Of a DNA stretch of 64,000 nucleotides, positions 3,123 through 55,813 are shown one piece after another. Position 1 is the stretch's first letter, and each line of letters begins with the position of its first letter. The notes under the pieces are model-generated. The model worked only from the letters and a program-made list of their open reading frames with translations, had not been told where the DNA came from and did no database searches. Position numbers and translations under genes: made by a program. The stretch comes from Candidatus Kuenenbacteria bacterium (GTDB lineage Bacteria; Patescibacteriota; Patescibacteriia; UBA11705; JABHMO01). The stretch is from NCBI GenBank assembly GCA_013202715.1, contig JABMRF010000007.1:8566-72565 (forward strand), given 5' to 3'.

Positions 3123-3239
3123 AGCGGATCCAACCCTTCGATAAACTCAGGGCAGGCGCGGATATAGCGGAAAGTGCACAACACATGTTAGCACGATCCG
3201 TATTAATCCGCGTATAATCCGTTAAATCCGCGTTTACAT

Positions 3240-3590: not shown

Positions 3591-3699
3591 ATCACGAATA
3601 GCACGAATTAGCGCGAATAAGCACGAACATCATTAGCGAAATTAAATAATGTATTTATTGGCGAATATTCGAGTGAATTCGCGAAATTAGTGATTATAT

Positions 3700-4766: not shown

Positions 4767-6221
4767 ATGGCTACGGAAACCGTAACAAAAAACACAACTT
4801 ATCTGACCAGTTCCTATATTTGGCAAAAACTTTTGTCGTTTTTTTATTTTGTAATGGTGGCTCGATTTATCGGTGTGGAAAATCTTGGTAAATATGCATT
4901 TGCAATTTCATTTGTAACGCTGTTCGCAGTTTTTGTTGATCTGGGCCTAAATCAGGCTCTGATTCGGGAGTCAGCAAAATTTCAGGAAAAATCAAAAAAT
5001 TACTTGTCTTCAATTTTGTCGGTCAAAGTTTTGGGATCATTTATCGTCTATATAATTGTGGTCGTTTTAATTAATCTCCTCAACTATCCAACTCTCACAA
5101 AAACTCTGGTTTATCTGGCCGGAATTCCAATGATTTTTGACCAGTTTGCAAATACTTTCTGGGCAGTTTTTCGTGGTCATCAAAATCTAAAATGGGAAGC
5201 AATCAGTATTGCCATTAATCAGGTGATAATTTTAGTGATTGGATTGACCGTACTGTATTTGCGTTTGCCTCTGGTCTGGTTAATGCTTCCGTTTATCTGC
5301 GCCAGCTTATTCAGTTTCTTGTTTGCCGGCTATAGCGTTAGAAAGATTTTGAAAGTAAAATATTTATTAAGATTTGACAAAAAGATCTTGCTGTTTCTGT
5401 TTTCAATCGCGGTCCCGTTTGCCCTGATCGCAGTTTTCAGTCGCGTGTATGGATATATTGATACAGTAATGCTCTCTAAAATGATTGGCGACAAAGCGGT
5501 TGGCTGGTATCAGGTGGCCATGAAAATTCCGTTTGCTTTGCAATTTATCCCAGCCGCACTCGCCGCAGCGATCTTTCCGGCCTTTAGTCATCATTTTTTA
5601 CATAATAAAGGACAGCTCAAATTTACTTTTGACCGCGTCATGAAGTTTTTGATGATTATTGTTGTACCGATCTCAGTCGGGGTGGCGGTTTTGGCAAGGC
5701 CAATTATCATGTTCTTTTATGGGCCCGAATATGAGCCTTCGATTCTGCCATTGCAAATCCTAATGGCAGGATTGATTTTTGTGTTTTTGAATTTTCCACT
5801 TGGTTCACTGCTAAATGCTTGCAATAAACACGTTACGAATATGATTTTGGTTGGGGTGATTATGGTTATAAATATCGGGTTAAATATATATTTGATTCCT
5901 GAATATAGTTTTGTTGGAGCAGCTTTTTCATTTTTAGTAAGCCATTGTTTATTATTTATCGTCAGTTTATTTGTTGCAAATAAAATTATTCCGTACAGCA
6001 AATTCAACTTATTGTCCGTTATTTTGAAAACAATGATCAGCGTTTTGGCAATGGGCGTTGTTTTGACGTATTTAATTAGCACGTTGCATTTTATAGTTTT
6101 AATTGCAATTGGCGCCTTGATTTACCTTGGTGTCATGTTTATTATCAGAGGCTTTACCACAAATGATTTAAAATATTTTTGGCAGGTTTTGATAAAAAGA
6201 AAGAAGGTGGGGGATTCCTAA
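4767..6221 (+). CDS. MOP-superfamily (Wzx/MurJ-like) polysaccharide/lipid-linked oligosaccharide flippase
   Basis: 484-aa polytopic membrane protein with 'polysaccharide biosynthesis protein' architecture; adjacent GT4. Confidence 0.6.
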   Translation: MATETVTKNTTYLTSSYIWQKLLSFFYFVMVARFIGVENLGKYAFAISFVTLFAVFVDLGLNQALIRESAKFQEKSKNYLSSILSVKVLGSFIVYIIVVVLINLLNYPTLTKTLVYLAGIPMIFDQFANTFWAVFRGHQNLKWEAISIAINQVIILVIGLTVLYLRLPLVWLMLPFICASLFSFLFAGYSVRKILKVKYLLRFDKKILLFLFSIAVPFALIAVFSRVYGYIDTVMLSKMIGDKAVGWYQVAMKIPFALQFIPAALAAAIFPAFSHHFLHNKGQLKFTFDRVMKFLMIIVVPISVGVAVLARPIIMFFYGPEYEPSILPLQILMAGLIFVFLNFPLGSLLNACNKHVTNMILVGVIMVINIGLNIYLIPEYSFVGAAFSFLVSHCLLFIVSLFVANKIIPYSKFNLLSVILKTMISVLAMGVVLTYLISTLHFIVLIAIGALIYLGVMFIIRGFTTNDLKYFWQVLIKRKKVGDS

Positions 6222-8208: not shown

Positions 8209-8437
8209 AATAACAACAATAAAACTCCATAGACAGCAGGTGTTCTTTTCAAGAGCTTAATTTCCTGTCGAGGAATAAGTCAACTTAATTAACTCAATTA
8301 ACTTAATTAACTTGAGTTCATGTCTGTGGATGTTTTCACAGATTTTTTTAATTTCGAATTATGGATTTATGTAGATTTTACGGATTAGTTATATCCGCTC
8401 AATCCGCGTTTGATCCGCAATATCCGCGTTATATTAT
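8209..8437 (+). promoter_or_regulatory. rplJ (L10) leader with attenuator hairpin (8323-8350, TCTGTG…CACAGA + U8) and distal ATCCGC word-repeat array
   Basis: 230-nt 5'UTR; terminator-like stem + ATTTTTTT ~90 nt upstream of ATG, as in autoregulated L10 leaders. Confidence 0.5.
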
Positions 8438-8959
8438 ATGCCTAAGACAAAAGAACAAAAAGAGAAAATTGTAAAAGATTTATCAGATATTATATCTTCT
8501 GCTAAGTCTGTTATAATTGCCAATCATGAAGGGCTGACTGTGAACGATGCACAATTGCTCCGCGAAAATTGCAAAGAGCAAAATGTTCAATTCGTTTCAG
8601 TCAAGAAATCTTTATTAAAATTGGCATTCGCTTCTGCTGGACTAAAAGATGTTGATACAAAAGCAATGGAAGGTAGTTTGGCTGTAGCTATTAGTAAAGA
8701 AGACGAAGTTGCTCCGGCAAAGATTCTAAAAGAATTTGCCAAAAAGCACGAGCAGGTAGTTTTCAACGGCGGAGTTTTGGAAGGCGAGATGGTCTCAGTT
8801 GAGCAAATTGAAAAGTTGGCTGAATTACCAAGCAAACAAGAACTTTATGCCAAGATCGTGGGGTCAATCAAGGCGCCAGTTTCCGGATTTGTTAATGTTT
8901 TGAGAGGAAACCTAAGTGGATTAATTAATGTATTGAATTCTATTAAAGAAACAAAGTGA
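8438..8959 (+). CDS. rplJ: 50S ribosomal protein L10
   Basis: N-terminal …K..V..L…..S…V.A.Y.GLTV.D…LR… and position before rplL. Confidence 0.85.
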   Translation: MPKTKEQKEKIVKDLSDIISSAKSVIIANHEGLTVNDAQLLRENCKEQNVQFVSVKKSLLKLAFASAGLKDVDTKAMEGSLAVAISKEDEVAPAKILKEFAKKHEQVVFNGGVLEGEMVSVEQIEKLAELPSKQELYAKIVGSIKAPVSGFVNVLRGNLSGLINVLNSIKETK

Positions 8960-9057
8960 AAAGCAAGACGAGCAAGACAAGCAAGAAAAGCAAGACGAGT
9001 AAATTTGGATACTTGTCTGGCTGGTCTCGCTGGTTTCACTTGTCTCGCTAAAATAAT

Positions 9058-9555
9058 ATGACAGACGAAAAAACAACAGCTCCAGTAGAGGAGAAGAAAG
9101 AAGCAGCTCCAGTAGCTGAGGAAAAAGTATCCACCTCCGCTGAAGCTACGGCGGACAAGGAAGAAACAAAGGATGTAGAAGTTCCAGCAAAGTTCAAATC
9201 TCTAGTTGAAGAAATTGAAAAAATGTCAGTTATGGATTTGGCAGAGCTTGTAAAAATCCTTGAAGAAAAATTTGGTGTCAGCGCTGCTGCTCCAATGATG
9301 GCTATGGCTGCCGGACCTGGCGCTGCAGCTGAAATAGAAGAAAAATCAGAATTCGATGTAGAATTAGTTGCCTGTGGTGAAAACAAAATCGCAGTTATCA
9401 AGGTTGTAAAAGAAATCTCAGGCCTTGGTCTAAAAGATGCAAAAGATCTAGTTGACGCAGCTCCAAAGGTTTTGAAAGAAGCCGTGAAAAAAGAAGAAGC
9501 TGAAGAAATGAAGAAAAAGATCGAAGAAGCTGGTGGTACTGTAAATTTGAAATAA
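9058..9555 (+). CDS. rplL: 50S ribosomal protein L7/L12 with ~40-aa N-terminal extension
   Basis: …[24 protein letters not shown]…[64 protein letters not shown]. Confidence 0.9.
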
Positions 9556-9928: not shown

Positions 9929-10085
9929 CCGTCTGACTGGATCAGCAACTATTCAGGTTTGGGTGAAGACAAGTAATGGCTTGATTCACGGTGATGTTTT
10001 TATGGTTCTGAGGTCTGGTGAAACCATAAAACTCGAGGGCGTGATGGTTCCTCCCGAACCAAGACCACAACTGGCTTTTGACTAA
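9912..10085 (+). CDS. hypothetical small β-rich protein (57 aa), overlapping the previous ORF in another frame
   Basis: ORF track 9870..10085; ATG at 9912; possible frameshifted continuation of 9719 ORF. Confidence 0.25.
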   Translation: MKFYHSRLTGSATIQVWVKTSNGLIHGDVFMVLRSGETIKLEGVMVPPEPRPQLAFD

Positions 10086-12367: not shown

Positions 12368-12557
12368 GAAAATTAAGAATCAAGAATGAATAATGAAGAA
12401 TGCAGAATTAAGGCTGTGCGCTACTGTAGTCGCTTATTAATTCTATATTCTTCATTGTTAATTTGACTAAAAGTAAGTATCTATATTATACTATACATAT
12501 AAACAATTAATCAACTCAAAACGCCACAATAGGGGGGAAACGGCAAATGCTAAAATT

Positions 12558-14660: not shown

Positions 14661-14672
14661 ATAAAATGTAAA

Positions 14673-15119
14673 ATGAAAAATGTAAAACCACAATCAAAAT
14701 TAAAAAAAGAAAAAATAGTTTTAATTTCAACTCCGCAAAATTCACATTTTTCTGTAGCAATCGGTGATGATCAGATTGAAAAGTTTAAGATTGTAAATAA
14801 GCCATACAAGCAATCAGAGTTGCTGTTGCAAACAATTGACGAGCTAGTCAAGAGTCAAAAGTCAAAAGTCAAAAGTCTGTTTGTTGTGAAGGGGCCGGGA
14901 CAGTTTTCTGCGTTAAGGATTGGAATTTCAACCGCTAACGCCCTGGCTTACGGATGGGGGATCCCGGTTGTGGGAATAGAACTGAAAAAGAGCTGGGAAA
15001 AGTTGGAACCAAAAGAAAAGCTCGAAAAAGTTTGGCAAGTTGGAGTTAAAAAATTAAAAAAGACAAAGCCTGGCGTGATTGTTTTGCCGAAGTACGGTAA
15101 AGAACCAAACATAACGTAA
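14673..15119 (+). CDS. tsaB: TsaB (YeaZ)-like tRNA t6A biosynthesis protein, N-terminal domain only (148 aa)
   Basis: GPGQFSALRIGISTANALAYGWGIPVVGI matches TsaB GPGSFTGLRIG…G.P..G motif. Confidence 0.55.
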   Translation: MKNVKPQSKLKKEKIVLISTPQNSHFSVAIGDDQIEKFKIVNKPYKQSELLLQTIDELVKSQKSKVKSLFVVKGPGQFSALRIGISTANALAYGWGIPVVGIELKKSWEKLEPKEKLEKVWQVGVKKLKKTKPGVIVLPKYGKEPNIT

Positions 15120-15247: not shown

Positions 15248-17749
15248 ACGAAGTCTTTTGCCTGAAGGTTCTTTCTCGGTCGGAGGAGACAATTTAGCAA
15301 TTAACTGTTCAAGTAAGTTCTTGAAAGGATCTGGTATATCTTGAGCTGGTATCATTTGCTCAGTTGCCATATCCTTGCGAGCTGAAATCCTTATTTTTGG
15401 TCTAGTAGCAACAATGTTTCCAGCCACTGCAGTTACTGTGCGTTTTTGGCTGGCATTCAAATAACCTGACTCATCTAGGTTGTGAATACCAATAACTGCT
15501 CGACTACAAATTTGTGGAATTTGCGCAAATGATGGATTGCTATCAATACTTTCTGACTTGGGTGGTTCATTTCTAGAAAGAATGTCCACGAACTGTTTAA
15601 GTAGGTATTCAGCAATACCACTAGCCATAAGTTTATTATTAGCCAGTACAGTCAAAGCTTCAATTGCTAGATCGTCTAGCCAAACCTTTTGTAAGGTGGC
15701 TTTGTTAAAAGCAAGCATGTACTTATTATAGATCGTACTATTGATTATAGGTGAACTCATAAGAGCAACAAAGGCTTGAACGATTTCATCCAGAGTTTCT
15801 CGCTCGTTAGTGGAATCTATGATTGCAATGTATTCATGCAAAAGCAAATCCAGTGCTTCAGCTAGTTCGATTTTAGCAGGCTGATCAAGTTGATCATGCT
15901 TAATAGCTGAGAATTTAGCTTTGGCAATGTTTATCCACGTTGTATTACTATATGAGTTTGTTTGGCTAACTACAAAGCCAATCAAGTTTACCAAGAATAG
16001 ATCACCGGTATTGATGAATCTGTCCAAAAATTCCGCATTTTGTTGCAAGATTGCTAGGTTTGGCTGTAGTGCTGGCCAGAATTTTTCTTTGTAAGCTCTA
16101 TTTCTTTTTTCACCCAAAATAAAGGTGGTTAGCAAAACTGCTCTTTGTGTGGCAGTACTTGACGGTTGACGTGCATTTAACAAGTAGAATTTTGCAATTT
16201 TTTTAACAATTTCACCTGGTAACTTACGTTCTTGATAGATTTTGTCCATCAAGTTGATGAAATGAACTTGTGCACCAGCTGTCCATTTTTGGAAGAAAGT
16301 CAAAGCCAGATCAAAAGCTTGATCAATTCGACTAACAAACTGGTTAACAAATTCCAGGGTTATAACTGCTTGAACTTCTGATTTGTCTTGGTTTTTACTT
16401 AGTGCATGACTGAAATAGTCAGCCCAAAGTTGCTCTTCCTGTAAAGCTTTTTGTCGTGGATCAGTTTCTAAGTGGAAAAGCACATGTTTGAAAGTGAAAA
16501 GTACTTGATCGTCATCGGTTAAATCAATATATTGGAGTAGTGGCTCAGTAATAAGTTCTGGTGCCAGTTGTTGGCCAAATTTCACCAAACAAGTTTCAAT
16601 AGTCTGTCTGTAGATTTTAGGATCTTCTACAAGAATTGTTCTGAGTTGGGCAACTAACCTAGTTTCTTGAACGAAATTTGGTAGTCTTCGACAGATCAAC
16701 TCAGCATTGGCTGTCAGGCAATTGATTACATGTAGCCTGACTTGACTTTTGGTGTCAACTTCTAGTAACTTTGCCAGAGTAATAACTGAAACGTTTAGTT
16801 CAACTTCAGTTTTATTTCTGTCCAGGTAGCCAACAATAATGTTGACTGCTTCGATTTGTAGTTTTGCTGAGCGTCCAGATTCGCACAAAAAGCTGATATT
16901 TTCCATTAATGTTGAATTACATCCATGGTCAGATAAAGCTTTTGCCACAATGCCTCGAGATCTAGTCGGACGATTGTGCAAGTTTGTGGTGATTGCGGTA
17001 ACAAAAGTTTCTTCCATTTTACCAAACATAGCTGGGCTGAGGGCATTGACAGTATTTTCAAATTCCTGAGGATCAACCATCATAGGTAAAGTAAACAGTT
17101 TTCTGCCCCACAGAGTAGCTTCTTCCAGCAAGCCTTCTTGCATTCTTTCTTGTACGGCTGGCAAAGCAAAAATGCCATCCTTGCCAGGAGCAGTCAAAGA
17201 CTGTTCTTGTTCCCTTACCGCTAGAGCCATTGTGCTTGAAGTAGCGTCAATCTCATCTTGCAAGGCAAGAATGATTTTGGGGTTGTTTAGTCCAGCGGGA
17301 ATTTCCATTTCTGGTTTGGTGTCTTCTTCTTCAATTTCAAACTCAGCGTCAATAATGTTAGAAGATTGTTCTGGCTCAGGAGTAGAGGAGACTACTCTTA
17401 ATTGCCAATAAATTTGCAAAGCTCGCAAACATTCTTCAGTTGCGGTTTTAGGCGTTAGATTTCTGTATTTTAGTTTGCGTTTAAAAAGAGAAAACAAGGC
17501 TTTGTTGATCAGGGCATCAAGATGGAATTGCGTCAGTATAGGCGAGGTTTTAAATTCTGGGAACATGAGTAAGGTTTCTATGATTTTTTTTGAGTCGTCA
17601 GGTTGATCAGTTTCCAGTAGCTCGATAATGCCTTCACTAATGTGAATGTTGTGCGCTGACAAAGCAATAATTCTTCTAGTTAGACGTTTATTTTTGATCC
17701 TTGCTTCAACTTGTTCTTGCCCAAGTGTAATAGCTGTGGAAATTTCCAT
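15245..17749 (-). CDS. large hypothetical α-helical protein (834 aa), no recognisable motifs
   Basis: uninterrupted 2.5-kb ORF on minus strand; predicted all-helical/repeat-like. Confidence 0.55.
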   Translation of the reverse strand: MEISTAITLGQEQVEARIKNKRLTRRIIALSAHNIHISEGIIELLETDQPDDSKKIIETLLMFPEFKTSPILTQFHLDALINKALFSLFKRKLKYRNLTPKTATEECLRALQIYWQLRVVSSTPEPEQSSNIIDAEFEIEEEDTKPEMEIPAGLNNPKIILALQDEIDATSSTMALAVREQEQSLTAPGKDGIFALPAVQERMQEGLLEEATLWGRKLFTLPMMVDPQEFENTVNALSPAMFGKMEETFVTAITTNLHNRPTRSRGIVAKALSDHGCNSTLMENISFLCESGRSAKLQIEAVNIIVGYLDRNKTEVELNVSVITLAKLLEVDTKSQVRLHVINCLTANAELICRRLPNFVQETRLVAQLRTILVEDPKIYRQTIETCLVKFGQQLAPELITEPLLQYIDLTDDDQVLFTFKHVLFHLETDPRQKALQEEQLWADYFSHALSKNQDKSEVQAVITLEFVNQFVSRIDQAFDLALTFFQKWTAGAQVHFINLMDKIYQERKLPGEIVKKIAKFYLLNARQPSSTATQRAVLLTTFILGEKRNRAYKEKFWPALQPNLAILQQNAEFLDRFINTGDLFLVNLIGFVVSQTNSYSNTTWINIAKAKFSAIKHDQLDQPAKIELAEALDLLLHEYIAIIDSTNERETLDEIVQAFVALMSSPIINSTIYNKYMLAFNKATLQKVWLDDLAIEALTVLANNKLMASGIAEYLLKQFVDILSRNEPPKSESIDSNPSFAQIPQICSRAVIGIHNLDESGYLNASQKRTVTAVAGNIVATRPKIRISARKDMATEQMIPAQDIPDPFKNLLEQLIAKLSPPTEKEPSGKRLR

Positions 17750-17928
17750 TTGGAGCCTCCAGTTTGTGTTTATATGTTAATGAACATTATATTTAATCTT
17801 AGAGAATTTTACCAAAAAAGTCAACAGTAGACAGTGAGGTAATCACTTAAACATATAAACAAAGAAATAAAGTACTTATAATTGTTTTTTGTTTAATTTA
17901 ATTAGAAAAGATATCCACAACTAAAGTG

Positions 17929-17957
17929 TTGATGTATGTATTGAGGTGGGGTATAAT
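17929..17957 (+). promoter_or_regulatory. sigma70-like promoter (TTGATG-17-TATAAT) for mraZ/dcw operon
   Basis: hexamers at 17929-34 and 17952-57; leaves ~160-nt 5'UTR containing ATCCGTA word hairpin. Confidence 0.55.
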
Positions 17958-18121
17958 GTAGGCAGAGTGAAGAAAAGTGGGGAATTGTGGAAGACCCTTT
18001 CATGTTTCTTATTTTCTTCATTTTTAAAATATACTGATTACGGATCAAATACGGATGTACAGATTCGTAACTGTAATCCCAAATCCGTACATCTGTACTA
18101 ATCGGTAATCCGTAAACTATT

Positions 18122-18553
18122 ATGTTTATCGGGCAATACAATTATTCAGTAGATTCAAAAGGCAGGTTAGCTATTCCGGCCAAGTTTCGGTCTGCTTTGA
18201 AATCCGGAGCAGTTGTCACAAAAGGATTGGATAACTGTCTTTTCGTTTACACTAAAACTGAATGGAATACTTATGCCAAAAAATTAGCAGCATTACCAAC
18301 AAGCCAGGCCAATAGCCGGGCTTTTTCTAGATTGATGCTCGCTGGAGCCATGGATGTGAAATTGGATTCACAGGGAAGAATTATGTTGCCTGATTATCTA
18401 AGAGCATATTCAAGTGTAAAGAAAAAGGTTGTCATTGCCGGCTTGTTTAACCGATTGGAAATCTGGGACGAAGCGAAGTGGAATCTTTACAAGAATAGAA
18501 CGGAAAAAGATGGGAATGAAATTGCCGAGCAGTTAGGTGAGCTCGGAGTATGA
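18122..18553 (+). CDS. mraZ: transcriptional regulator MraZ
   Basis: two DxxxR half-domains: VDSKGRLAIP and LDSQGRIMLP. Confidence 0.9.
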   Translation: MFIGQYNYSVDSKGRLAIPAKFRSALKSGAVVTKGLDNCLFVYTKTEWNTYAKKLAALPTSQANSRAFSRLMLAGAMDVKLDSQGRIMLPDYLRAYSSVKKKVVIAGLFNRLEIWDEAKWNLYKNRTEKDGNEIAEQLGELGV

Positions 18554-18728
18554 CGCGAATAATGCGAATATATACGCGAATGACACGAATCGCGAATATC
18601 GCAAATAGGACCTCTATGAATATTATTCGCGATTCGCGACATTAGCGTTATATATAAATAAAATAAAAACAAAAGTATGTTTAAACAATTGTTAAAAGTT
18701 CTTGAATTAATATTTATTTGGTAAAAAT

Positions 18729-19661
18729 GTGCTAACTATCCACAAGCCGGTTCTAATTAATGAAGTGATTGAGTTTTTGTCTCCCAAGAAAAACCAGAAT
18801 TTTGTTGACTGCACCATCGGTGGCGGGGGACACGCAGAAAAAATATTAGAACTTACCGGGCCAAATGGAAGGCTTCTCGGGATGGATTGGGATCCGGGAG
18901 CAATCAAACTTTCTCGGCATCGGTTAGAAAAATTCAAAAAGCGGCTTGTCTTAGTTAACCATTCTTACATAGAATTAAAAAAAGTAGTGTATGATGAAAG
19001 ATTTTTTCACATTAACGGTATTCTTCTTGACCTTGGCTTATCTTCAGATCAGCTACAAGCTTCAGGACGTGGATTTTCTTTTCAGGTAAATGAACCGCTC
19101 GATATGCGGTATTCACCGGAAGAAAATGAATTTACCGCAGCAGACATTATAAATAAGTGGCCGGAAGAAAAAATTAAAAAAATGCTAAAAGAAAACGCAG
19201 AAGAAGGGCATGCCGGCAGAATCGCAAAGGCGATTATTGAAAGACGTAAAGAAGAGGAGATTAAAACAACATTGGAATTAGTGGCGGTAGTTATCAAAAA
19301 TGTTCCTAGAAAAAGATCCAGAATCCATCCGGCGACAAAAACTTTTCAAGCTTTGCGAATGGAAGTTAATAACGAATTAACAAATGTCCGTTTGCTATTA
19401 AAAGATGTATTGGAAATAATGGAACCTGGTTGTCGCCTGGGAATAATCACATTCCATTCTTTGGAAGACCGGATCGTAAAGCAGTTTTTTAAACATGAAA
19501 GTATTGACTGTCACTGTCCGACTGAAATTCCTGTTTGTAGATGCGAGCACAAAGCGCAGTTGAAATTAATTACGAAAAAGCCGGTGGGGCCAAGTGACGA
19601 CGAAATATCTGAGAATTTTCGTTCTCGAAGTGCAAAATTAAGGGTAGTTGAAAAGCTATAA
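18729..19661 (+). CDS. rsmH: 16S rRNA (cytosine1402-N4)-methyltransferase RsmH (MraW); GTG start
   Basis: HKPVL..E…L……DCT.GGGGH…G…DP.A… + SAM-MTase fold; dcw position. Confidence 0.9.
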   Translation: MLTIHKPVLINEVIEFLSPKKNQNFVDCTIGGGGHAEKILELTGPNGRLLGMDWDPGAIKLSRHRLEKFKKRLVLVNHSYIELKKVVYDERFFHINGILLDLGLSSDQLQASGRGFSFQVNEPLDMRYSPEENEFTAADIINKWPEEKIKKMLKENAEEGHAGRIAKAIIERRKEEEIKTTLELVAVVIKNVPRKRSRIHPATKTFQALRMEVNNELTNVRLLLKDVLEIMEPGCRLGIITFHSLEDRIVKQFFKHESIDCHCPTEIPVCRCEHKAQLKLITKKPVGPSDDEISENFRSRSAKLRVVEKL

Positions 19662-19773
19662 GTTACGCGAATATGCATGTATGCGAATATCGCGAATCGC
19701 GAATAAGACGATTATTATTCGCATCATTCGCAATTTGCATCATTCGTATTAATATTCGCGACATTCGCGTCAT

Positions 19774-20121
19774 ATGACAAGATTCACAAAATCATTGAGA
19801 CCAGAAAAAAATTCTAACCTAAAGCGAAAGGTTAGAAAGCTATCGAAGCCAATTCTTTTGGTGGTTTTGGGGATATTTTTTGTGGGAGCGATTGGTATTT
19901 ATTTATTTCAAATAAATTACATTGCGGCAACAGGATTCCAGATTCGCGATTATGAAAAACAAATTTCTGAATTAACATATGAAAACGAGAAGATTCAAAT
20001 GCAAATAATTGAAATGAAATCTATGACAGATTTGTCAGCCAAGGTTGCTGAATTAAATATGGAACCTGTTGGCCAGATTACTTATTATGATACCAGTGGT
20101 CAGGTTGTGGCGCGGAAGTAG
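19774..20121 (+). CDS. ftsL: cell-division protein FtsL-like (single TM + coiled coil)
   Basis: 115 aa, TM helix then heptad-like region; position after rsmH. Confidence 0.6.
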   Translation: MTRFTKSLRPEKNSNLKRKVRKLSKPILLVVLGIFFVGAIGIYLFQINYIAATGFQIRDYEKQISELTYENEKIQMQIIEMKSMTDLSAKVAELNMEPVGQITYYDTSGQVVARK

Positions 20122-20158
20122 TGACTAGCGAATAGCGAATAGGGATTAGTGATTAGTT

Positions 20159-20184
20159 AAAAGCCTGTAGAAGGGGCTTTTTTG
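20159..20184 (+). terminator. rho-independent terminator (AAAGCC-loop-GGCTTT + U)
   Basis: after ftsL. Confidence 0.65.
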
Positions 20185-20190
20185 TTTGTC

Positions 20191-20695: not shown

Positions 20696-20908
20696 AAACG
20701 GGGGCTCCATAGTCCCTTTGAAGCTAGACCCGTCCTTTGAAATCGGGATAGGAAGAATGAATAGCGAAGAAGGGCTGTGGAGTCCTTTTTGGGATGTTAT
20801 AAAAGCGACTTGGAAGTTTTTTAAATATCTCCAACAGGACTCCACAGCCTGTTCTTCGTTTCACTTCGAACAGGACTATGGAGCCCTCATTAAAGTAATT
20901 CTCCGTTT
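20696..20908 (+). ncRNA. candidate structured RNA / MITE-like element with two nested 21-bp helices (each: 14 perfect bp + 1x2 internal loop + 7 bp)
   Basis: 20702-20715↔20873-20886 and 20772-20786↔20836-20849 perfect complements; 20716-23↔20864-70 and 20765-71↔20852-58 extend both; ~47% GC; weak ORF potential only. Confidence 0.4.
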
Positions 20909-24133: not shown

Positions 24134-24138
24134 TGAAT

Positions 24139-24225
24139 ACGTGATCTACTGATTTTCTACGTGATCTACTGATGCTAACTGTTTTTAACTCATGTAGATC
24201 AGTAGTAAATCACGTAGATCAAGTA
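24139..24225. promoter_or_regulatory. operator-like array: 2 direct + 2 inverted copies of ~15-bp motif TACGTGATCTACTGAT
   Basis: tacgtgatctactgat ×2, then …catgtagatcagtag… and …cacgtagatca; immediately upstream of lipoprotein gene. Confidence 0.45.
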
Positions 24226-24240
24226 TTATTCAATATACTT

Positions 24241-25305: not shown

Positions 25306-25375
25306 ATTGTTAAATTGTTAGATTGTTATATTGTTAAAACAATTTAGCAATATGGCAATTTAGCAATATAATTTT

Positions 25376-28161: not shown

Positions 28162-28298
28162 AGATCAAGGAGCAAAGATCAAAGAGCAAAGTAGGCGTAA
28201 AGCATAAAGATAAAAGCATAAAGAAGTGGCTCATAGGAATCCTTCTTTAGTCTTTTTCCTTGCTCTTTTATCTTCCTTTGATCTTAGCCCCTTGATCT
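28162..28298. repeat. word-hairpin spacer: (GCAAAGATCAARG)n forward then reverse complement
   Basis: aaagatcaaggagcaaagatcaaagagcaaag … ctttgatcttagccccttgatctttgc. Confidence 0.7.
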
Positions 28299-29606: not shown

Positions 29607-29681
29607 GGCCCCATCGTCTAGTGGTTAGGACGCATGGTTCTCATCCATGTAACCGGAGTTCGATTCTCCGTGGGGTCACCA
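29607..29681 (+). tRNA. tRNA-Glu (anticodon CUC)
   Basis: cloverleaf: acceptor GGCCCCA/TGGGGTC, D-arm CGTC-AGTGGTTA-GGAC, anticodon stem CATGG/CCATG loop TTCTCAT, T-arm CGGAG-TTCGATT-CTCCG, encoded CCA; starts 1 nt after murF stop. Confidence 0.85.
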
Positions 29682-29779
29682 CTTTAAAAATGAACAATGA
29701 ATAATGAATAATTCGCTCAATAGGTAGAAATATGGTGTAAAATTTGCCAGTTAAATGTTTTATGTTATAATGAATTTAT

Positions 29780-34343: not shown

Positions 34344-34374
34344 AGTCCCCCCCGCATTGCGGGGGGGACTTTTA
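34344..34374 (+). terminator. rho-independent terminator (GTCCCCCCCGC-ATT-GCGGGGGGGAC + U4)
   Basis: 11-bp GC stem + TTTT. Confidence 0.75.
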
Positions 34375-34582
34375 AAATCCAAAATGCAAAATGCCGTTCG
34401 GCCTCGAGCTCACGGCCGAGAGGTAAAACCACAGTTAAAATTCAGAATAAAAAATATTTTTTAAATTTATTATTTAAGGTATGTGGTTTTACATTTTTCA
34501 TTTTACATTCTGCAGCTCTTGCATTATTTATAAAAATATACTACAATAATACAAGATAAATAATCGGAGAGAATTAATAAAT

Positions 34583-34768: not shown

Positions 34769-35049
34769 ACGATACTCAAGTAGCTCAAATCGAAGGGCTT
34801 TTGAAAAATTCAGAATTAGATAATCGCTCGCAGGAGTTGATGCGGCAGTTTTTTAATTCTATTGCCGAACAGCCACAATATCCTAAGATCGTCAGTTTGC
34901 TGGAAAGATTTCCTTCTGTTTTTGAAAACTTTTGCAACTGCTTTCAGGTGAAGCGAGATTTTCTTAAACAAGGAAAAAGTGAAGAAGAATGGAATACTTT
35001 TGTTGCAAAGGAAGATGAGATGTTTGAGCAGATGGAGAAGGAAGAATAG
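34765..35049 (+). CDS. hypothetical small acidic protein (94 aa)
   Basis: translationally coupled to 34583 ORF. Confidence 0.35.
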   Translation: MNDTQVAQIEGLLKNSELDNRSQELMRQFFNSIAEQPQYPKIVSLLERFPSVFENFCNCFQVKRDFLKQGKSEEEWNTFVAKEDEMFEQMEKEE

Positions 35050-35244
35050 GTAATAGGTAATAGGTAATAGGTAATAGCTTATAGACTGAAGGGCTAAAAG
35101 GTCCTTTTTTTGTTTTTAAATAGTTATCCACAGGTGATCCTTGCTGTTCGTATTTTGTTCGGTTATAATAAATATATACGAACAGAAACCGAACTGGAGA
35201 ATAAAATTTTCAATTTCCAATTTCTAGTTTACAATAAATTTTCA

Positions 35245-35631
35245 ATGACAAAATTTTCAAATATGAGTAGTAATAATAACAAATATGATTTAGAAGAAAG
35301 GACCGCCAAGTTTGGTGAGGATATTATTGATTTGTGTCAAAAGATAGAGAAAGATTTCATTAATCGTCCAATACTAAATCAATTACTTCGTTCAGGAACC
35401 TCTATTGGGGCGAACTATATGGAAGCAAATGGTGCCAGTTCAAAAAAAGATTTTCGTAATAAGATTTTTATTTGCAAAAAAGAAGCTCAAGAGACAAAGC
35501 ATTGGCTGCGTATGACTAAAAAGGCTATTTCAATTGAAAATCAAAAAGTAGAATATTTGGCAAATGAAGGACAAGAATTGATATTCATTTTTCAAAAGAT
35601 AACGAGTTCCTTGGACAGTAAAAAGGTTTGA
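35245..35631 (+). CDS. four-helix-bundle protein (TIGR02436 / '23S rRNA intervening-sequence protein' family), copy 1
   Basis: …FINRPILNQLLRSGTSIGANYMEA……EAQETKHWL… family hallmarks; start uncertain (35110/35245/35263). Confidence 0.6.
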   Translation: MTKFSNMSSNNNKYDLEERTAKFGEDIIDLCQKIEKDFINRPILNQLLRSGTSIGANYMEANGASSKKDFRNKIFICKKEAQETKHWLRMTKKAISIENQKVEYLANEGQELIFIFQKITSSLDSKKV

Positions 35632-39264: not shown

Positions 39265-39351
39265 ATGAAATGCAAAAAATGTAGATGTCAGACGTGTAAA
39301 TGCAAATCCAAATGCACAGATTGTGACTGTAAACCCTGTAAGTGTAAATAA
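39265..39351 (+). CDS. 28-aa Cys/Lys-rich peptide (MKCKKCRCQTCKCKSKCTDCDCKPCKCK), metallothionein-like
   Basis: not in ORF track (<60 aa); 10 Cys in CxC/CxxC spacing; extended -10 TGCTATAAT at 39226-34 and hairpin terminator 39362-39395. Confidence 0.3.
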   Translation: MKCKKCRCQTCKCKSKCTDCDCKPCKCK

Positions 39352-44642: not shown

Positions 44643-45020
44643 TTGAAACATGAAGCAATTACTTATATGATTGAAACATATCACCAAGCATTAAGGAAAA
44701 AAATGAATGATTATGCTCATTTGGTTTATAAGATCACAAGGGACTTTCCAAGAGAGGAATTGTACGGTGTTACAAGTCAGTTGAGAAGAGCTTCTCTTTC
44801 GGTAATTTTAAATTATATTGAGGGATATGCTCGGATTAAGGATAAAGTGCATAAGAATTTTTTAGAGATATCCTATGGTTCCTTGAAAGAATCTGATTAT
44901 TTGTTGGAATTTTCAAAAGACGAAAAGTATATCAATAGCGACCAAGATTATATAGTAGCCAGAAAGCTAGCAGATGAAATTGGCGCTATGCTTTGGTCTA
45001 CAATAAAAGGACTCGATTAA
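44643..45020 (+). CDS. four-helix-bundle protein (TIGR02436 family), copy 2, flanked by inverted repeats
   Basis: …ELYGVTSQLRRASLSVILNYIEGYAR……SLKESDYLLEF…; flanks 44599-44642 / 45021-45088 share CATGAAACAT-type words in inverted orientation. Confidence 0.6.
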   Translation: MKHEAITYMIETYHQALRKKMNDYAHLVYKITRDFPREELYGVTSQLRRASLSVILNYIEGYARIKDKVHKNFLEISYGSLKESDYLLEFSKDEKYINSDQDYIVARKLADEIGAMLWSTIKGLD

Positions 45021-47776: not shown

Positions 47777-49336
47777 TTGTTACATTGTTTTATGAATCCA
47801 ATAGTTTTATTAATCCTAGACGGGTGGGGAATTGCACCCAAAAGTAAAGGAAATGCAATTGAATTGGCAAAAAAGCCGAACTTTGATTTGCTTTGGAAAA
47901 AATATCCTCATGCACTATTAAATGCACACGGATTAAATGTTGGTTTGCCAAAATATTATGTTGGAAATTCTGAGGCCGGGCATATTAATATTGGCGCCGG
48001 CAGGATTGTTAAGGATGATGCAGTTGAAATTTCTGAAGATATTTTAAATGGGAAGTTCAAGAAAAACTTGGCTCTAGTTCAAACAATTGAATCAGTAGCA
48101 AAAAACAAGTCAGCTTTGCATTTGATGGGAATGGTTTCGGACGGAGAAAGTCCTCATTCCTCACTGGATCATTTATATTCATTAGTTGATTTGGCATATA
48201 ATAAAGGACTTAGAAAAATTTACTTACATTTATTTACGGACGGGAGAGATGCTCCTCAATTTCACGCGCTTAAAATTGTGGATGAGGTTTTGAAAAATGT
48301 TTATGGAAAAGCTGTGATTGTCAGTTTAATCGGTCGATATTATGCCATGGATCGTGGAAAAAACTGGAAGCGAACTCAAAAGGCATATGAATGCATGGCG
48401 AGTGGCAAAGGCGTATTTTTTCGAGATTATCGAGATGCGATTATTCATTCATACAATAAAAAAGTAACTGATGAATTTATTGAGCCGTCAATTATTGGAA
48501 AAGATAAAAAGCAGGCGACTGAAGCTAGAATAAAAGACGGTGACGGCGTAATATTTTTTAACGCTCGATCTGATCGCGCGCGTCAACTTGCAAAATGTTT
48601 TGTACAAAAAGAGTTTAATAAGTTAAATCCTGGTGCGTTTAAACGAAGCAAAGTTTACAATAAGTTATCGTTTTGCGCTTTAACAGATTTCGGCCCGGAC
48701 TTGGACCATATTCTTACTGCTTATCCTTCGGCCGATCTTGATTTTACATTACCAAAAGTTCTGAAGGACACGAAACAGCTCTATCTCGCAGAAACGGAAA
48801 AATATGCTCATGTGACTTACTTTATGAATGGTGGAAGTGCGGATCCGGTTAATGGAGAAAAAAGAGTTCGAATTGATTCTCCTAGAGTAAAAAGTTATGC
48901 TCAAAAACCGGAAATGAGTGTTTATAAGATTACCAATACTTTGAAGCGCGCACTTGAGCAAAAGAAATATGATTTTGTCGCTGTAAATTTTGCAAATCCG
49001 GATATGCTGGGGCATACTGGAAATATAAAAGCAACTATTGATGCGATTCAGCACGTGGATAAATGTGTTAAAGAGTTGGCCGATTTGATCATAAAACAAA
49101 AAGGAACATTAATTATAACAGCAGATCATGGAAATGCTGAGAAAATGATTAATCTCGAGAATAATGAGATATGGACCGGCCACACAACAAATCCTGTACC
49201 CTTTGTTTTGGTTGCCGATGAATTCAAGGGGGCAAGATTGAAAACTGGTGTCCTCGGAGATATTGCGCCGACAATTTATCAAATACTAAACATGAAAAAA
49301 TTACCTAAAAAAATAAATAAAGGATTAATTAAATAA
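47777..49336 (+). CDS. gpmI: 2,3-bisphosphoglycerate-independent phosphoglycerate mutase, paralogue 1
   Basis: LLILDGWG…GNSEAGHINIGAG…TDGRD…ADHGN. Confidence 0.85.
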   Translation: MLHCFMNPIVLLILDGWGIAPKSKGNAIELAKKPNFDLLWKKYPHALLNAHGLNVGLPKYYVGNSEAGHINIGAGRIVKDDAVEISEDILNGKFKKNLALVQTIESVAKNKSALHLMGMVSDGESPHSSLDHLYSLVDLAYNKGLRKIYLHLFTDGRDAPQFHALKIVDEVLKNVYGKAVIVSLIGRYYAMDRGKNWKRTQKAYECMASGKGVFFRDYRDAIIHSYNKKVTDEFIEPSIIGKDKKQATEARIKDGDGVIFFNARSDRARQLAKCFVQKEFNKLNPGAFKRSKVYNKLSFCALTDFGPDLDHILTAYPSADLDFTLPKVLKDTKQLYLAETEKYAHVTYFMNGGSADPVNGEKRVRIDSPRVKSYAQKPEMSVYKITNTLKRALEQKKYDFVAVNFANPDMLGHTGNIKATIDAIQHVDKCVKELADLIIKQKGTLIITADHGNAEKMINLENNEIWTGHTTNPVPFVLVADEFKGARLKTGVLGDIAPTIYQILNMKKLPKKINKGLIK

Positions 49337-49337
49337 T

Positions 49338-50921
49338 ATGAAGTCAATACCAAAGCCAGTAGCATTAATTGTTTTGGACGGATGGGGCGTTGCTCCGGAG
49401 TCGGAAGGAAATGGAGTCACTCTAGCGAAAACTCCGAACTATGATAAGTATGTTTCCAGTTACCCGGCAATGACCTTGCTTGCGTCAGGTGAAGCCGTTG
49501 GTTTGTCTTGGGGTGAAATGGGGAATTCAGAAGTAGGTCATTTGAATCTGGGAGTTGGGAAAATATTTTATCAGAATTTACCGCGAATTGATAAAGCAAT
49601 TGAGGATAACAGTTTTTTTGAAAATGAAGTTTTGAAAAAAGCGATTGAGCATACCAAGAAACATAATTCAAAATTACACTTATTGGGTATAATTAGTCAA
49701 GGAAAGGTACATGGTGTGAATACTCACTGCTATGCACTGTTGGAATTGGCAAAAAAACAGGGAGTAAAAGACGTTTTTGTCCACGCGTTTCTAGACGGTC
49801 GAGATTCAAAGTTTGACAGCGGAAAAACTTTTATCAAGGAACTGGAAGAGAAAATAAAAGAAATTAAAGTTGGTGAAATTGCTTCTTTGCACGGACGGCT
49901 CTATGCAATGGATCGTGATAATCGTTGGGAGCGTGTTGAAAAAACATTTAAAGTTTTAGTTGAAGGCAAAAGTGAAGAATATGATAAAAATCCGGTTAGT
50001 TCGATTGAAAAGTCCTACAAGGACAAGGTTTACGATGAAGAATTTGTTCCGGTTGTGATTGGAAAGGAAGGTGCTCCTACCGCCGTAATTGAAGATAATG
50101 ACGCTGTGATTTGTTTCAATTACAGAGCTGATCGAGCCAGGCAATTAGCACATGCGTTTGTTCTAGATAAGTTTGATAAATTTGATCGTGGAGAAAAGAT
50201 AAAGAATCTATTTTTTGCATCAATGACTGAATATGAAAAAGGTTTACCTGTGGAAGTTATTTTTCCAAAAGAAGAAATTAAAACTTCACTACCGAAAGTA
50301 ATCAGTGAAAAAGGGTTTAAACAACTTCATATTGCTGAGACTGAAAAATATGCTCATATTACCTTCTTTTTTGCTGGTGGAGTGGAAGATCCATATGAAG
50401 GAGAAGATCGGATTGTGATTCCATCACCAAAAGTAGCTTCTTATGATGAAAAACCAGAAATGTCTGCGCGAAAAGTTACAGATGATTTGCTAAAAGAAAT
50501 ATTAAGTGAAAAACATGATTTCATTATTTTGAATTATGCTAATCCGGACATGGTCGGGCACACCGGACAAATTAAGGAAACGGTAAAATCCATTGAAACC
50601 ATTGATAAATACTTGGGGGAAGTTGTTGAAATGATTTTATCAAAAAACGGTTTGGCGATTATTGTTGCTGATCATGGAAATGCTGAGGAGCTGACAAATT
50701 TGCAGACCGGTGAAAAAGACAAAGAGCACAGTACGAATCCTGTTCCTTGTTTGATAATAGGAAAAGATTATGAAGGCAAAACAATTGAAGATGTTCAAAC
50801 GGTTGGTAATGATTTGAGTTTAGTTCAACCAACTGGATTGCTGTCCGATGTTGCGCCAACAATTTTGAAAATAATGGGAATTGATGCACCAGATGATATG
50901 ACCGGTCGACCTCTAATTTAA
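49338..50921 (+). CDS. gpmI: 2,3-bisphosphoglycerate-independent phosphoglycerate mutase, paralogue 2
   Basis: LIVLDGWG…GNSEVGHLNLGVG…LDGRD…ADHGN; divergent from paralogue 1. Confidence 0.85.
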   Translation: MKSIPKPVALIVLDGWGVAPESEGNGVTLAKTPNYDKYVSSYPAMTLLASGEAVGLSWGEMGNSEVGHLNLGVGKIFYQNLPRIDKAIEDNSFFENEVLKKAIEHTKKHNSKLHLLGIISQGKVHGVNTHCYALLELAKKQGVKDVFVHAFLDGRDSKFDSGKTFIKELEEKIKEIKVGEIASLHGRLYAMDRDNRWERVEKTFKVLVEGKSEEYDKNPVSSIEKSYKDKVYDEEFVPVVIGKEGAPTAVIEDNDAVICFNYRADRARQLAHAFVLDKFDKFDRGEKIKNLFFASMTEYEKGLPVEVIFPKEEIKTSLPKVISEKGFKQLHIAETEKYAHITFFFAGGVEDPYEGEDRIVIPSPKVASYDEKPEMSARKVTDDLLKEILSEKHDFIILNYANPDMVGHTGQIKETVKSIETIDKYLGEVVEMILSKNGLAIIVADHGNAEELTNLQTGEKDKEHSTNPVPCLIIGKDYEGKTIEDVQTVGNDLSLVQPTGLLSDVAPTILKIMGIDAPDDMTGRPLI

Positions 50922-51410: not shown

Positions 51411-51536
51411 ATTAAGAGCAGTTAAAAGGTAAAATGTCCCGCGTGACGGGATCCCGCTACGCGGGATAAAAGTTAAAAGTAATCGATTTATTGTCTTTGT
51501 ACTATTAACTTTGAACTTTGAGCTTTTAACTAATGT

Positions 51537-54094: not shown

Positions 54095-54166
54095 ATTGTT
54101 ATACTGTTGTATTGTTATATTGTTCAAAAACAGTATAGCAGTATGGCAATATAACAGTATAATCCG

Positions 54167-55162: not shown

Positions 55163-55237
55163 TCTTGAGTCAAAATTCAGAAGTCTTGAGTTGTTAACTC
55201 CAGACTTTTGACCCTAGACTTTTGACTGGTAGTAAAT

Positions 55238-55813
55238 ATGTTAGACAAGAAATTTTGGAAAAAAACATTGGAAGACCAAAGTGAATATGATATTTCACGA
55301 CGGAAAATTATTAGTGAAGCTTCTGGTGCTCAGCATTTGGCGAAGCAGGCTATCTTTGCATTGCAAAGAGATGATAAACAAGAGGCAGAAGAAAAAATCG
55401 CTGTAGCAAAAGAAGGCTTGATAAGTTTAGAAAAAAGATTTGGTAAGGATGGGAAACTTAGAACTGAGGGCGTGTGGAAAGCGGCCGTGGAAGAGTTTGT
55501 GGAAGCAAAGTTGTTCATGGATTTTATTAAAAAAAAGGATATTCAAGGCATTGAAGAGTTTTTTGTTTTGCCGGATGAGTATATCGGGGGATTATCCGAT
55601 GTTACAGGCGAAATCCTGAGAATGATGGTGCTTTGGACTACAAAAGGCAACATTGAAGAAGTTAAAAATTCAGCGGAAGTGATCAGTGAAATAATTCATG
55701 AGTTGATGCAGTACAATTATGGCGGATATTTGCGCACAAAGTTTGATCAGGCAAAAAGATCTCTTCAAAAAGCAGAACAAATTCTTTACGATCTTAGTAT
55801 TCGGAAAAAATAG
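55238..55813 (+). CDS. translin-family protein
   Basis: C-terminus …YIGGLSDVTGEILRM……ILYDLSIRKK matches human translin …YGLYLSAELMRL……VVYDLSIRGF. Confidence 0.7.
   Translation: MLDKKFWKKTLEDQSEYDISRRKIISEASGAQHLAKQAIFALQRDDKQEAEEKIAVAKEGLISLEKRFGKDGKLRTEGVWKAAVEEFVEAKLFMDFIKKKDIQGIEEFFVLPDEYIGGLSDVTGEILRMMVLWTTKGNIEEVKNSAEVISEIIHELMQYNYGGYLRTKFDQAKRSLQKAEQILYDLSIRKK

Follow-up and report, generated by a model that had tools for sequence, protein, structure and literature searches.

Hairpins of short repeated words in the intercistronic spacers of a Candidatus Kuenenbacteria genome

Why should the gaps between the genes of a small bacterial genome be built from one short word, repeated several times in one orientation and then several times as its reverse complement? 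We addressed this question in a stretch of 64,000 nt from Candidatus Kuenenbacteria (Patescibacteria; contig JABMRF010000007.1, positions 8,566-72,565), which is referred to here as the window and supplies all the coordinates below. Genes were called by codon-usage score, and 12% of the window is intergenic. A first-pass annotation had drawn attention to seven gaps in the ribosomal-protein and cell-division operons, proposing that copies of a word of 6 to 8 nt followed by copies of its reverse complement would allow each gap to fold into a long imperfect hairpin. Our analysis confirmed that these word hairpins are real and lie far above chance expectation.

Loci at which two non-overlapping copies of a 7-mer and two copies of its reverse complement fall within 160 nt number 7 in the window, whereas 30 block-wise shuffles with local dinucleotide content preserved gave 0.23 on average and never more than 1, and the equivalent count for 6-mers was 13 in the window and 2.7 in the shuffles. 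The objection that such paired blocks might simply arise by chance in sequence of this composition therefore fails. The words are also concentrated between genes, where their density is overall 4 to 43 times that in coding sequence (5.7-fold for GCGAAT, 16.7-fold for CGCGAAT, and 43-fold for ATCCGC, with ATCCGTA occurring three times between genes and never within them), which disposes of the further objection that the tested words are not enriched in intergenic DNA. Tandem arrays of period 7 to 9 detected with Tandem Repeats Finder show the same bias, with 27 intergenic and 16 coding arrays corresponding to a 12-fold higher density between genes; period 7 is the commonest among the intergenic arrays (13 arrays), followed by period 9 (9 arrays) and period 8 (5 arrays).

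Examined one by one, the seven gaps proved less uniform than had been proposed. Forward words followed by their reverse complements were found in six, but the seventh, at 20122-20158, contains direct copies only. Fold z-scores of all seven gaps against dinucleotide shuffles (Table 1) showed four of the six hairpins to be clearly stable and two to be marginal, and the direct array does not fold better than its shuffles. The predicted stems of the hairpins comprise 27 to 57 pairs with internal loops. The suggestion that all of the elements use related CGAAT/ATCCG words holds for these sites, but not beyond them. Clusters of CGAAT/CGGAT words are restricted to 3.1-20.1 kb of the window, whereas an inverted-repeat scan combined with spacer-by-spacer folding revealed the same architecture, built from unrelated words such as ATTGTTA, AAAGATCAA, and AGCAAGAC, in at least eight more spacers spread across the whole window.

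Overall, hairpin elements are present in about one-quarter of the window spacers of at least 40 nt, among them gaps within the ribosomal-protein and cell-division operons, and they fill the spacers in which they lie: the 5' base is mostly 0 to 3 nt past the stop codon of the upstream gene, and the 3' base is 0 to 23 nt short of the next start. The window hairpins occupy co-directional or divergent spacers, and the convergent spacers that we inspected hold ordinary terminators. Co-transcription of the flanking genes is inferred from gene order and from the absence of a promoter or terminator between them. Pfam assignments bore out the gene context that had been assumed for the flagged gaps, namely rpoA/rplQ, rplQ/rplM, the region 5' of rplJ, the mraZ 5' untranslated region (UTR), mraZ/rsmH, and rsmH/ftsL-like. 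The gene order is rpsM-rpsK-rpsD-rpoA, the gap at 3123-3239, rplQ, the gap at 3591-3699, and rplM-rpsI; rplJ begins at 8438, and mraZ (18122-18553), rsmH (18729-19661), and an ftsL-like gene (19774-20121) lie further downstream. The RsmH of the window is 100% identical to a protein that NCBI assigns to Candidatus Kuenenbacteria.

If the elements were fixed components of these operons, the same spacers in related genomes would be expected to carry them. DNA was available for five Kuenenbacteria-like relatives (loci L086, L003, L004, L005, and L087), whose RsmH proteins are 71-65% identical to that of the window; two further genomes, P0007 and P0023, were compared by gene maps alone. Eighty distant rsmH loci (38-51% identity), collected in a metagenome search with the most conserved peptides, served only as controls, and a search of genome contigs with RsmH added one distant locus. 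Another locus, L002, is identical to the window and therefore carries no information on polymorphism.

The rsmH/ftsL spacer, which holds a 112-nt GCGAAT hairpin in the window, contains TACGGAT/TACAGAT hairpins of 139 nt in L086 and 132 nt in L003 that are homologous to each other, but in five genomes (L004, L005, L087, P0007, and P0023) it is merely 1 to 31 nt long (lengths of 8, 21, 31, 8, and 1 nt). In the mraZ/rsmH spacer, forward words are present in five of six genomes (CGCGAAT, TACGGAT, TACGAAT, CACAAAT, and TACNTGAT), and in four of the five word-bearing genomes the reverse arm is degenerate or absent. The spacer between the penicillin-binding protein (PBP) and Mur-ligase genes carries an array in the window, L003, L004, L005, and a Moranbacteria contig, L088, the word differing from one to the next, but is only 40 to 46 nt long, without an array, in L087 and one other genome. 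The element in the mraZ 5' UTR has a homologue in L004 and is absent from L003, L005, L086, and L087, even though L086 and L003 are closer relatives, and L004 has three copies of CGCGAAT at the position equivalent to the array at 20122-20158. Where an orthologous element could be compared directly, L086 proved to have two 8-nt TACGGAT units more than L003 (a single pair, with RsmH 80% identical). Taken together, the relatives show that position is loosely conserved, that sequence turnover is fast, and that size changes by whole words.

Elements are also dispersed as near-identical copies. The element at 25306 matches the one at 54095, 29 kb away, with 85-89% identity across the full length of about 72 nt, and the 28 nt at 14665-14692 are the exact reverse complement of 34482-34509. 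In L088, the element of the rsmH/ftsL spacer matches that of the PBP/Mur-ligase spacer with 84% identity across 108 nt; in L086, about 35 nt, linkers included, are common to the elements on either side of rsmH; and in L021, one of the distant loci, three CACAGAG elements have common arms and unrelated loops of about 90 nt. Counted in the window only, a family has two to four copies per 64 kb, the best pair being the one that is 85-89% identical. These dispersed copies imply that elements have been copied and are not only the products of independent local expansions.

Table 1. Word hairpins and word arrays of the window, with fold z-scores against dinucleotide shuffles
Feature	Position	Strand	Words	z	Remarks
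rpoA/rplQ spacer hairpin	3124-3231	+	GCGGAT / GCGCGGAT / GCGGAA, then ATCCGTA, ATCCGCG, ATCCGTT, ATCCGCG	-4.2	Minimum free energy (MFE) -38.6; begins 1 nt after stop, ends 8 nt before ATG
rplQ/rplM spacer hairpin	3591-3694	+	CACGAAT x2, CGCGAAT, CACGAAC, then ATTCGAG, ATTCGCG	-1.8	Weak; gaps to stop and start, 0 and 5 nt
Weak hairpin, L10 leader to rplJ start	8363-8430	+	ATGGAT / GTAGAT / ACGGAT (degenerate), then ATCCGC x4	-0.9	Adjoins, without overlap, the Rfam L10_leader (RF00557, 61.9 bits) at 8209-8359, 5' of rplJ
rplJ/rplL spacer hairpin	8962-9049	+	AAGCAAGAC x4, then GTCT(C/G)GCTG / GTCTCGCTG x4	-6.4	Not in the first-pass annotation
Divergent-spacer hairpin	12385-12463	.	ATGAAGA-type x7, then TTCTTCAT		Within inferred 5' UTR of a minus-strand 739-aa gene
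Direct array, YkuD/tsaB junction	14662-14692	+	TAAAATG		tsaB start codon comes from the array
mraZ 5' UTR hairpin	18032-18114	+	TACGGAT x2 + TACAGAT, then ATCCGTA, ATCTGTA, ATCCGTA (words 18039-18114)	-4.4	Downstream of the GTGGGG MraZ-box promoter
mraZ/rsmH hairpin	18554-18655	+	(C)GCGAAT x5 + CGCAAAT, then ATTCGCG x2, degenerate ATTAGCG	-5.2	MFE -37.7; begins at first base 3' of mraZ stop; order at 18554-18606 is CGCGAAT, GCGAAT, CGCGAAT, CGAAT, CGCGAAT, CGCAAAT; ATTCGCG x2 at 18625-18638
rsmH/ftsL-like spacer hairpin	19666-19769	+	(C)GCGAAT x4 (19666-19705), then ATTCGCA x2, ATTTGCA, ATTCGTA, ATTCGCG x2	-2.2	
Direct-only 7-nt array	20122-20158	+	GCGAATA x2, GGGATTA, GTGATTA	-0.1	From ftsL-like stop to canonical terminator (~20160-20187)
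Word hairpin	24136-24227	+	ACGTGATCTACTGAT x2, then its reverse complement x2		
Hairpin 5' of SPFH/Band-7 gene	25306-25375	+	ATTGTTAN x4, then TAGCAAT / TGGCAAT x4	-9.2	Whole spacer; one G.U pair per word; paralogue of the 54095 element
137-nt PBP/Mur-ligase spacer hairpin	28162-28298	+	AAAGATCAA / GAGCAAAG / AAAGCATAAAG	-6.1	Whole spacer
Paired arms around GC-rich inner hairpin	34374-34509	+	AAAATGC x3 with TTTTACA / CATTTT x3		
Perfect direct heptamer array	35045-35077	+	GTAATAG x4.7		100% matches; stop codon to terminator
Divergent-spacer words	51420-51531	.	AGTTAAAAG paired with CTTTTAACT / CTTTGAA x5		
DedA/MltG spacer hairpin	54095-54166	+		-7.5	Second ATTGTTA-family copy; ATTGTTAN x4, then TAGCAAT x4; fills spacer
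MltG/translin-family spacer hairpin	55163-55225	+	AGTCTTGAGT, then AGACTTTTGAC x2		

In addition to the direct-only arrays at 14662, 20122, and 35045, two more lie directly 3' of stop codons at 29689 and 44599. A tRNA-Glu gene (CTC; 29607-29681) begins at the base after the Mur-ligase stop codon and is followed on its 3' side by an array of AATGAAT x3.4. A heptamer array also occurs within a coding sequence, AGTCAAA x4.6 at 14846-14877 in the tsaB-like gene, where it is translated as KSQKSKVKS; its unit is related to the words of the hairpin at 55163-55225.

Several other features surround the mraZ and rsmH elements. MraZ-box repeats (GTGGGG, GTGGGG, and GTGGAA) at 17946-17992 overlap the mraZ promoter. 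One or two copies of a DnaA-box-like motif, TTATCCACA, lie 5' of mraZ in L003, L004, L005, and L086, at the place where the window carries ATATCCACA (17911-17919). Between the mraZ hairpin and rsmH is a conserved micro-ORF (open reading frame) of 15 codons (window 18677-18724), encoding MFKQLLKVLELIFIW before its stop codon. Versions with synonymous changes are found in L004 (~9940-9987; MFKHLLRVLELIFIW), L005 (~9938-9985; MAKQLLKILELIFIW), and L087 (~9952-9996; MKKVLQILELIFVW), and the micro-ORF is absent from L003 and L086. It probably encodes a real small hydrophobic protein or an rsmH leader peptide.

What kind of element would combine these properties? The explanation that we consider probable, with some reserve, is that these are slippage-prone, copy-spreading palindromic simple-sequence elements that persist in transcribed gaps because they fold out, and that they act there as generic intercistronic stem-loops. 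Stop codons followed by direct-only arrays of these words, the dispersed copies, and the presence or absence of elements between relatives all speak for it. According to this explanation, word arrays would arise and be resized by replication slippage, would become palindromic through intrastrand template switching or inverted duplication, and would then be copied into near or far spacers. They would survive only where they are harmless: because its arms are self-complementary, an insert of 70 to 140 nt would fold out of the polycistronic mRNA as one long imperfect hairpin, so that the stop codon before it would come to adjoin the start codon after it. A Shine-Dalgarno-like motif precedes only 11 of the 72 genes of the window, and downstream translation by termination-reinitiation could persist under such conditions. 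Once present, the hairpin would impede 3' exonucleases and probably serve as a substrate for RNase III, without being an essential sequence-specific regulatory site. The elements probably do act as intercistronic stem-loops, and the idea that they are RNase III or other processing sites is plausible from modeled stem length, since their 27 to 57 pairs exceed the approximately 20 bp or more of double-stranded RNA expected of a substrate. With regard to start sites, TATAAT boxes ending 7 to 8 nt 5' of the ATG of several genes, for example, at 4767, 29780, 39426, and 58854 (minus strand), suggest leaderless mRNAs.

The main rival to this explanation holds that the elements are selected cis-acting RNA hairpins that set the expression of neighboring cistrons through RNase III cleavage, 3'-end protection, or start-codon gating, the repeated words being merely how stems grow. 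Their long stems with internal loops do resemble the intercistronic RNase III sites of phage T7, and several hairpins lie where the stoichiometry of the products changes (rplJ/rplL, rpoA/rplQ, and mraZ/rsmH). The pattern of substitution also speaks for a selected role. In four homologous copy pairs, changes affected 107 of the 634 columns that pair and 105 of the 232 that do not (p = 1.6e-16), a rate of change 2.7 times lower in stems than in loops and linkers. In the L088 copies, none of 32 consensus pairs is broken and only two are altered, both by U-A to U.G shifts in one direction or the other; in the two copies of the ATTGTTA family, a consensus fold shows that all five changed pairs stay paired, two of them by double changes; and L086 and L003 differ by two double changes from G-C to A-U. 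The ATTGTTA family moreover contains eight wobble pairs that are available to the sense strand only, which is 16-17 kcal/mol more stable than the antisense strand, and it looks like RNA-level structure. It is this family, and not the originally flagged CGAAT/CGGAT family, that best supports the selected-role explanation.

The sense-strand pattern of the ATTGTTA family does not, however, generalize. In a test derived from single sequences, structure-preserving changes in the four copy pairs numbered 41 of 81 on the sense strand and 11 of 66 on the antisense strand, but this comparison is confounded by two wobble-rich families, to which the preference for the sense strand is confined. Across 21 hairpins there is no uniform sense-strand wobble signature, G.T and A.C mismatches being equally frequent (63 to 63), and plus- and minus-strand fold energies show that the better-folding strand varies among elements; of 15 elements of the CGAAT/CGGAT family, 10 fold more stably as the antisense strand, and the six that lie in the window are all among these. 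A selected role is also hard to reconcile with the relatives that lack an element at the same spacer, where the genes are then only 1 to 31 nt apart, and with direct-only arrays that form no hairpin at equivalent positions. We regard selected hairpins as an unlikely explanation, although one to be taken seriously. The arms are maintained, whether through selection, acting on RNA pairing or on the words themselves, or through DNA-level homogenization.

At the other extreme, the elements might be pure mutational debris, which slippage and the conversion of quasi-palindromes would generate in a genome poor in repair and dominated by drift, with neither RNA nor expression affected and with pairing unconstrained. 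Rapid turnover, presence or absence between relatives, equal numbers of G.T and A.C mismatches, and the many direct-only arrays would all follow from this proposal. It does not predict that stems should change more slowly than loops and linkers, nor that elements should be near-exclusive to transcribed gaps, in co-directional and divergent spacers, with ordinary terminators in the convergent ones. On these grounds we consider it improbable.

Recurrence of particular words raises a different possibility, that a conserved protein binding DNA or RNA reads YRC(G/A)(G/A)AT and uses the elements as arrayed sites, the orientation of the words being incidental or serving dimers. The words CGCGAAT, CACGAAT, TACGAAT, TACGGAT, TACAGAT, and CACGGAT are related, words are kept while linkers vary, and, the MraZ box aside, no non-coding word array recurs more often than that of CGAAT, with 11 arrays at 6 of 87 loci. 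These loci include the Moranbacteria-like L061, which carries TACGAAT hairpins 5' of mraZ and directly after rsmH, and L031. Most direct-only arrays have CGAAT in the sense strand, but the idea that they always do so was ruled out by L031, in which an array at 6027-6108 has the opposite orientation. The same architecture extends to L021, L031, and L038 among the 80 distant loci, and to words of a different kind: an Acidobacteriota contig, L059 (58% GC), has CACGGAC x4-5 followed by GTCCGTG x4 at both 9180-9285 and 17735-17840, forming near-perfect hairpins in which the period is strictly 10 nt and the 3-nt linkers are complementary. The occurrence of the architecture in so many independent assemblies also rules out an assembly artifact. 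A hairpin directly after rsmH is nevertheless not a general feature of bacteria, the median z over 60 loci being -0.2. The first-pass annotation had listed binding arrays for a dimeric regulator among its options, and this option is not borne out: spacing is irregular (7, 9, 12, and 16 nt), many unrelated words coexist in one genome, and the arrays are absent from orthologous spacers and are hence dispensable in relatives. As there is also no candidate protein in the window, and as the Acidobacteriota contig builds the architecture from CACGGAC, we rate the binding-array proposal as very doubtful.

A bolder version, improbable on present evidence, would make the elements a prokaryotic counterpart of foldback transposons or a Patescibacteria-wide system, in which a conserved trans-acting factor reads YRC(G/A)(G/A)AT in arms of tandem words. 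Such a factor would explain why the words recur in Kuenenbacteria-like and Moranbacteria-like genomes, why words are conserved while linkers drift, and why elements are copied between ribosomal and division operons; it could mobilize the elements or employ them to mark core operons with a common post-transcriptional tag.

It remains to consider whether the elements belong to a class that is already known, such as terminators or attenuators, ribosomal-protein leaders, the MraZ operator, or a TIGR (tandem interspaced guide RNA) or CRISPR-like guide array. Elements do follow stop codons, and the L10 leader and MraZ boxes are close by. The attenuator or terminator option fails, since no U-tract follows the hairpins and canonical GC-rich terminators are found elsewhere in the window; the stems are long and AT-rich and lead into a start codon or A-rich leader, unlike intrinsic terminators. 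A search of the window against Rfam returned only the L10 leader and one tRNA, with nothing over the hairpins except sub-threshold matches to microRNA precursors at permissive thresholds. The MraZ operator was rejected, its boxes being the GTGGGG repeats that are separate from the hairpin words. TIGR arrays are common in candidate-phyla-radiation bacteria and are built from 36-nt units, in which edge repeats alternate with loop repeats and two spacers of about 9 nt are included, adjoining a Nop-domain Tas gene (PMC12045711). The period in the window is 7 to 12 nt instead of 36, the neighbors are housekeeping genes, and there is no Nop-domain gene, so this class was rejected as well. CsrA sites were considered on account of the likeness of UACGGAU to the GGA motif, but GGA is missing from CGAAU words; DNA uptake sequences are excluded by the number of different words per genome; and integron attC sites are excluded because the genes are core and syntenic and no GTTRRRY box is present. 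Membership in a known class of this kind is thus highly improbable.

Returning to copy-spreading elements that fold out as generic stem-loops, several points weigh against that explanation and temper our preference for it. The mode of spread is the first: Pfam scans found no transposase, REP-associated tyrosine transposase (RAYT), Nop-domain protein, or RNase III among the 72 ORFs of the window, the large unknown ORFs of the window gave no relatives in the PDB, and the unknown ones that neighbor the elements gave neither a Nop nor a PDB match. Inspection by eye for target-site duplications revealed no consistent flanking direct repeat, TAA occurring at both ends in the ATTGTTA family only. Second, the slower change of stems fits selection for function as well as mere tolerance. 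Third, the PBP/Mur-ligase spacer is occupied in five of the eight genomes examined, which hints at positional selection or a hotspot. Fourth, the appearance of the CGAAT word in both Kuenenbacteria-like and Moranbacteria-like genomes is not predicted by pure structural drift, and streamlined genomes are not expected to retain some 2% junk. Finally, the data cover 64 kb of one Kuenenbacteria genome, to which close and Moranbacteria-like relatives add about 130 kb.

Candidate-phyla-radiation genomes of about 1 Mb have been assumed to be free of non-essential DNA, yet hairpin elements are common between genes here. They bear on operon expression in organisms that mostly lack Shine-Dalgarno sites, and, should the hairpins prove to be processing or coupling devices, they would offer a simple way of approaching post-transcriptional control in lineages that have not been cultured. 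They also have practical consequences. Annotation is affected because elements can provide stop codons, start codons, and, as in tsaB, even coding heptamers, and assembly and strain typing are affected because the elements are hypervariable.

Several unrelated features of the window were noted in passing. A GC-rich hairpin at 20763-20860 (-53.9 kcal/mol), without an Rfam match, lies in the 363-nt gap before tgt, and other long GC-rich hairpins (GTCATTCCG...CGGGATGAC) occupy the same place in L003 (11408-11812), L005 (11300-11564), and L086 (4064-4371); these may represent an unannotated small RNA or a different type of mobile hairpin. An unannotated cysteine-rich ORF of 28 codons at 39265-39351 (encoding MKCKKCRCQTCKCKSKCTDCDCKPCKCK before its stop), just 5' of an Fe-S/NiFe-hydrogenase cluster, resembles a metallothionein or metal-binding peptide. 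The window further contains a translin-family protein, unusual in bacteria (55238-55813), two tandem cofactor-independent phosphoglycerate mutase paralogues (47777-50921), and two genes for "23S rRNA intervening sequence protein" (35110-35631 and 44643-45020).

Within the literature that we searched, no description of such elements in Patescibacteria was found, and comparisons must be sought elsewhere. Intergenic stem-loops that cluster 3' of coding sequences and form repeat families are general in bacteria (PMC1590033). The repetitive extragenic palindromic (REP) sequences of proteobacteria, enteric bacteria among them, with their composite bacterial interspersed mosaic elements (BIMEs) and REPINs, are similar in being extragenic, in lying inside operons after stop codons, in forming imperfect hairpins in mRNA, and in belonging to dispersed, species-specific families. 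REP elements stabilize upstream mRNA. Their unit is an imperfect palindrome of 20 to 40 nt with a conserved GTAG-type head, mobilized by RAYT, whereas the unit in the window is a non-palindromic 7-nt word, the copies are less uniform, and alignments of the elements show no conserved termini. Of the four options in the first-pass annotation, a REP/BIME-like family comes nearest to the evidence: near-identical copies are dispersed, extragenic, intra-operonic, and fast evolving, but they lack the GTAG-headed palindrome, and no RAYT was seen in the window.

Foldback elements and miniature inverted-repeat transposable elements likewise have arms of tandem short repeats, a variable core (as in L021), and dispersed copies (as in L021 and the 25306/54095 pair). 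Foldback elements are eukaryotic and of kilobase scale, generate target-site duplications, and in some cases carry transposase genes, none of which was found for the window elements. REP and foldback elements can accordingly be considered only looser analogues. The RNase III sites of phage T7 are also long imperfect stem-loops between the cistrons of a polycistronic mRNA; they differ in having no repeated words, in being conserved in sequence, and in that their cleavage has been demonstrated experimentally, whereas for the window elements cleavage is only inferred.

Long simple-sequence repeats come closer. Among repeats with units of 5 to 11 nt, heptamers are the commonest (Mrazek 2007, cited in PMC4679880), and TAACTGA heptamers occur inside ribosomal-protein operons of Beggiatoaceae (MacGregor 2015, PMC4679880). 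As in the window, heptamers dominate, the repeats are intergenic and found in ribosomal-protein operons, among other places, the downstream genes lack Shine-Dalgarno sites, and an origin by slippage has been proposed. TAACTGA repeats are, however, nearly always direct (169 direct sets and 1 inverted set), with one word per genome, and lie just 5' of start codons, whereas the window elements form inverted pairs as a rule, use many coexisting words, and begin at the stop codon.

The closest described relatives of the word hairpins are the hairpins of short tandemly repeated repetitive (STRR) sequences in cyanobacteria. In four filamentous cyanobacteria, 7-bp STRR repeats form hairpins between the co-transcribed genes hupS and hupL, for which roles in transcript stability or translational coupling have been proposed (PMC2670836). 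Both kinds of element consist of tandem units of about 7 nt, with several unit sequences per genome, many intergenic loci, and inverted arrays that fold between co-transcribed genes. Those in the window differ in belonging to Patescibacteria with genomes of about 1 Mb, in their words, in their often irregular linkers, and in the copying of whole elements between spacers. They nevertheless show the features that define the STRR type, namely, a unit of 5 to 11 nt, concentration in non-coding DNA, inverted hairpin arrays, and change in copy number by whole units (the last seen in one pair only). Together with the Acidobacteriota contig, they indicate that STRR-like hairpin repeats are not peculiar to cyanobacteria.

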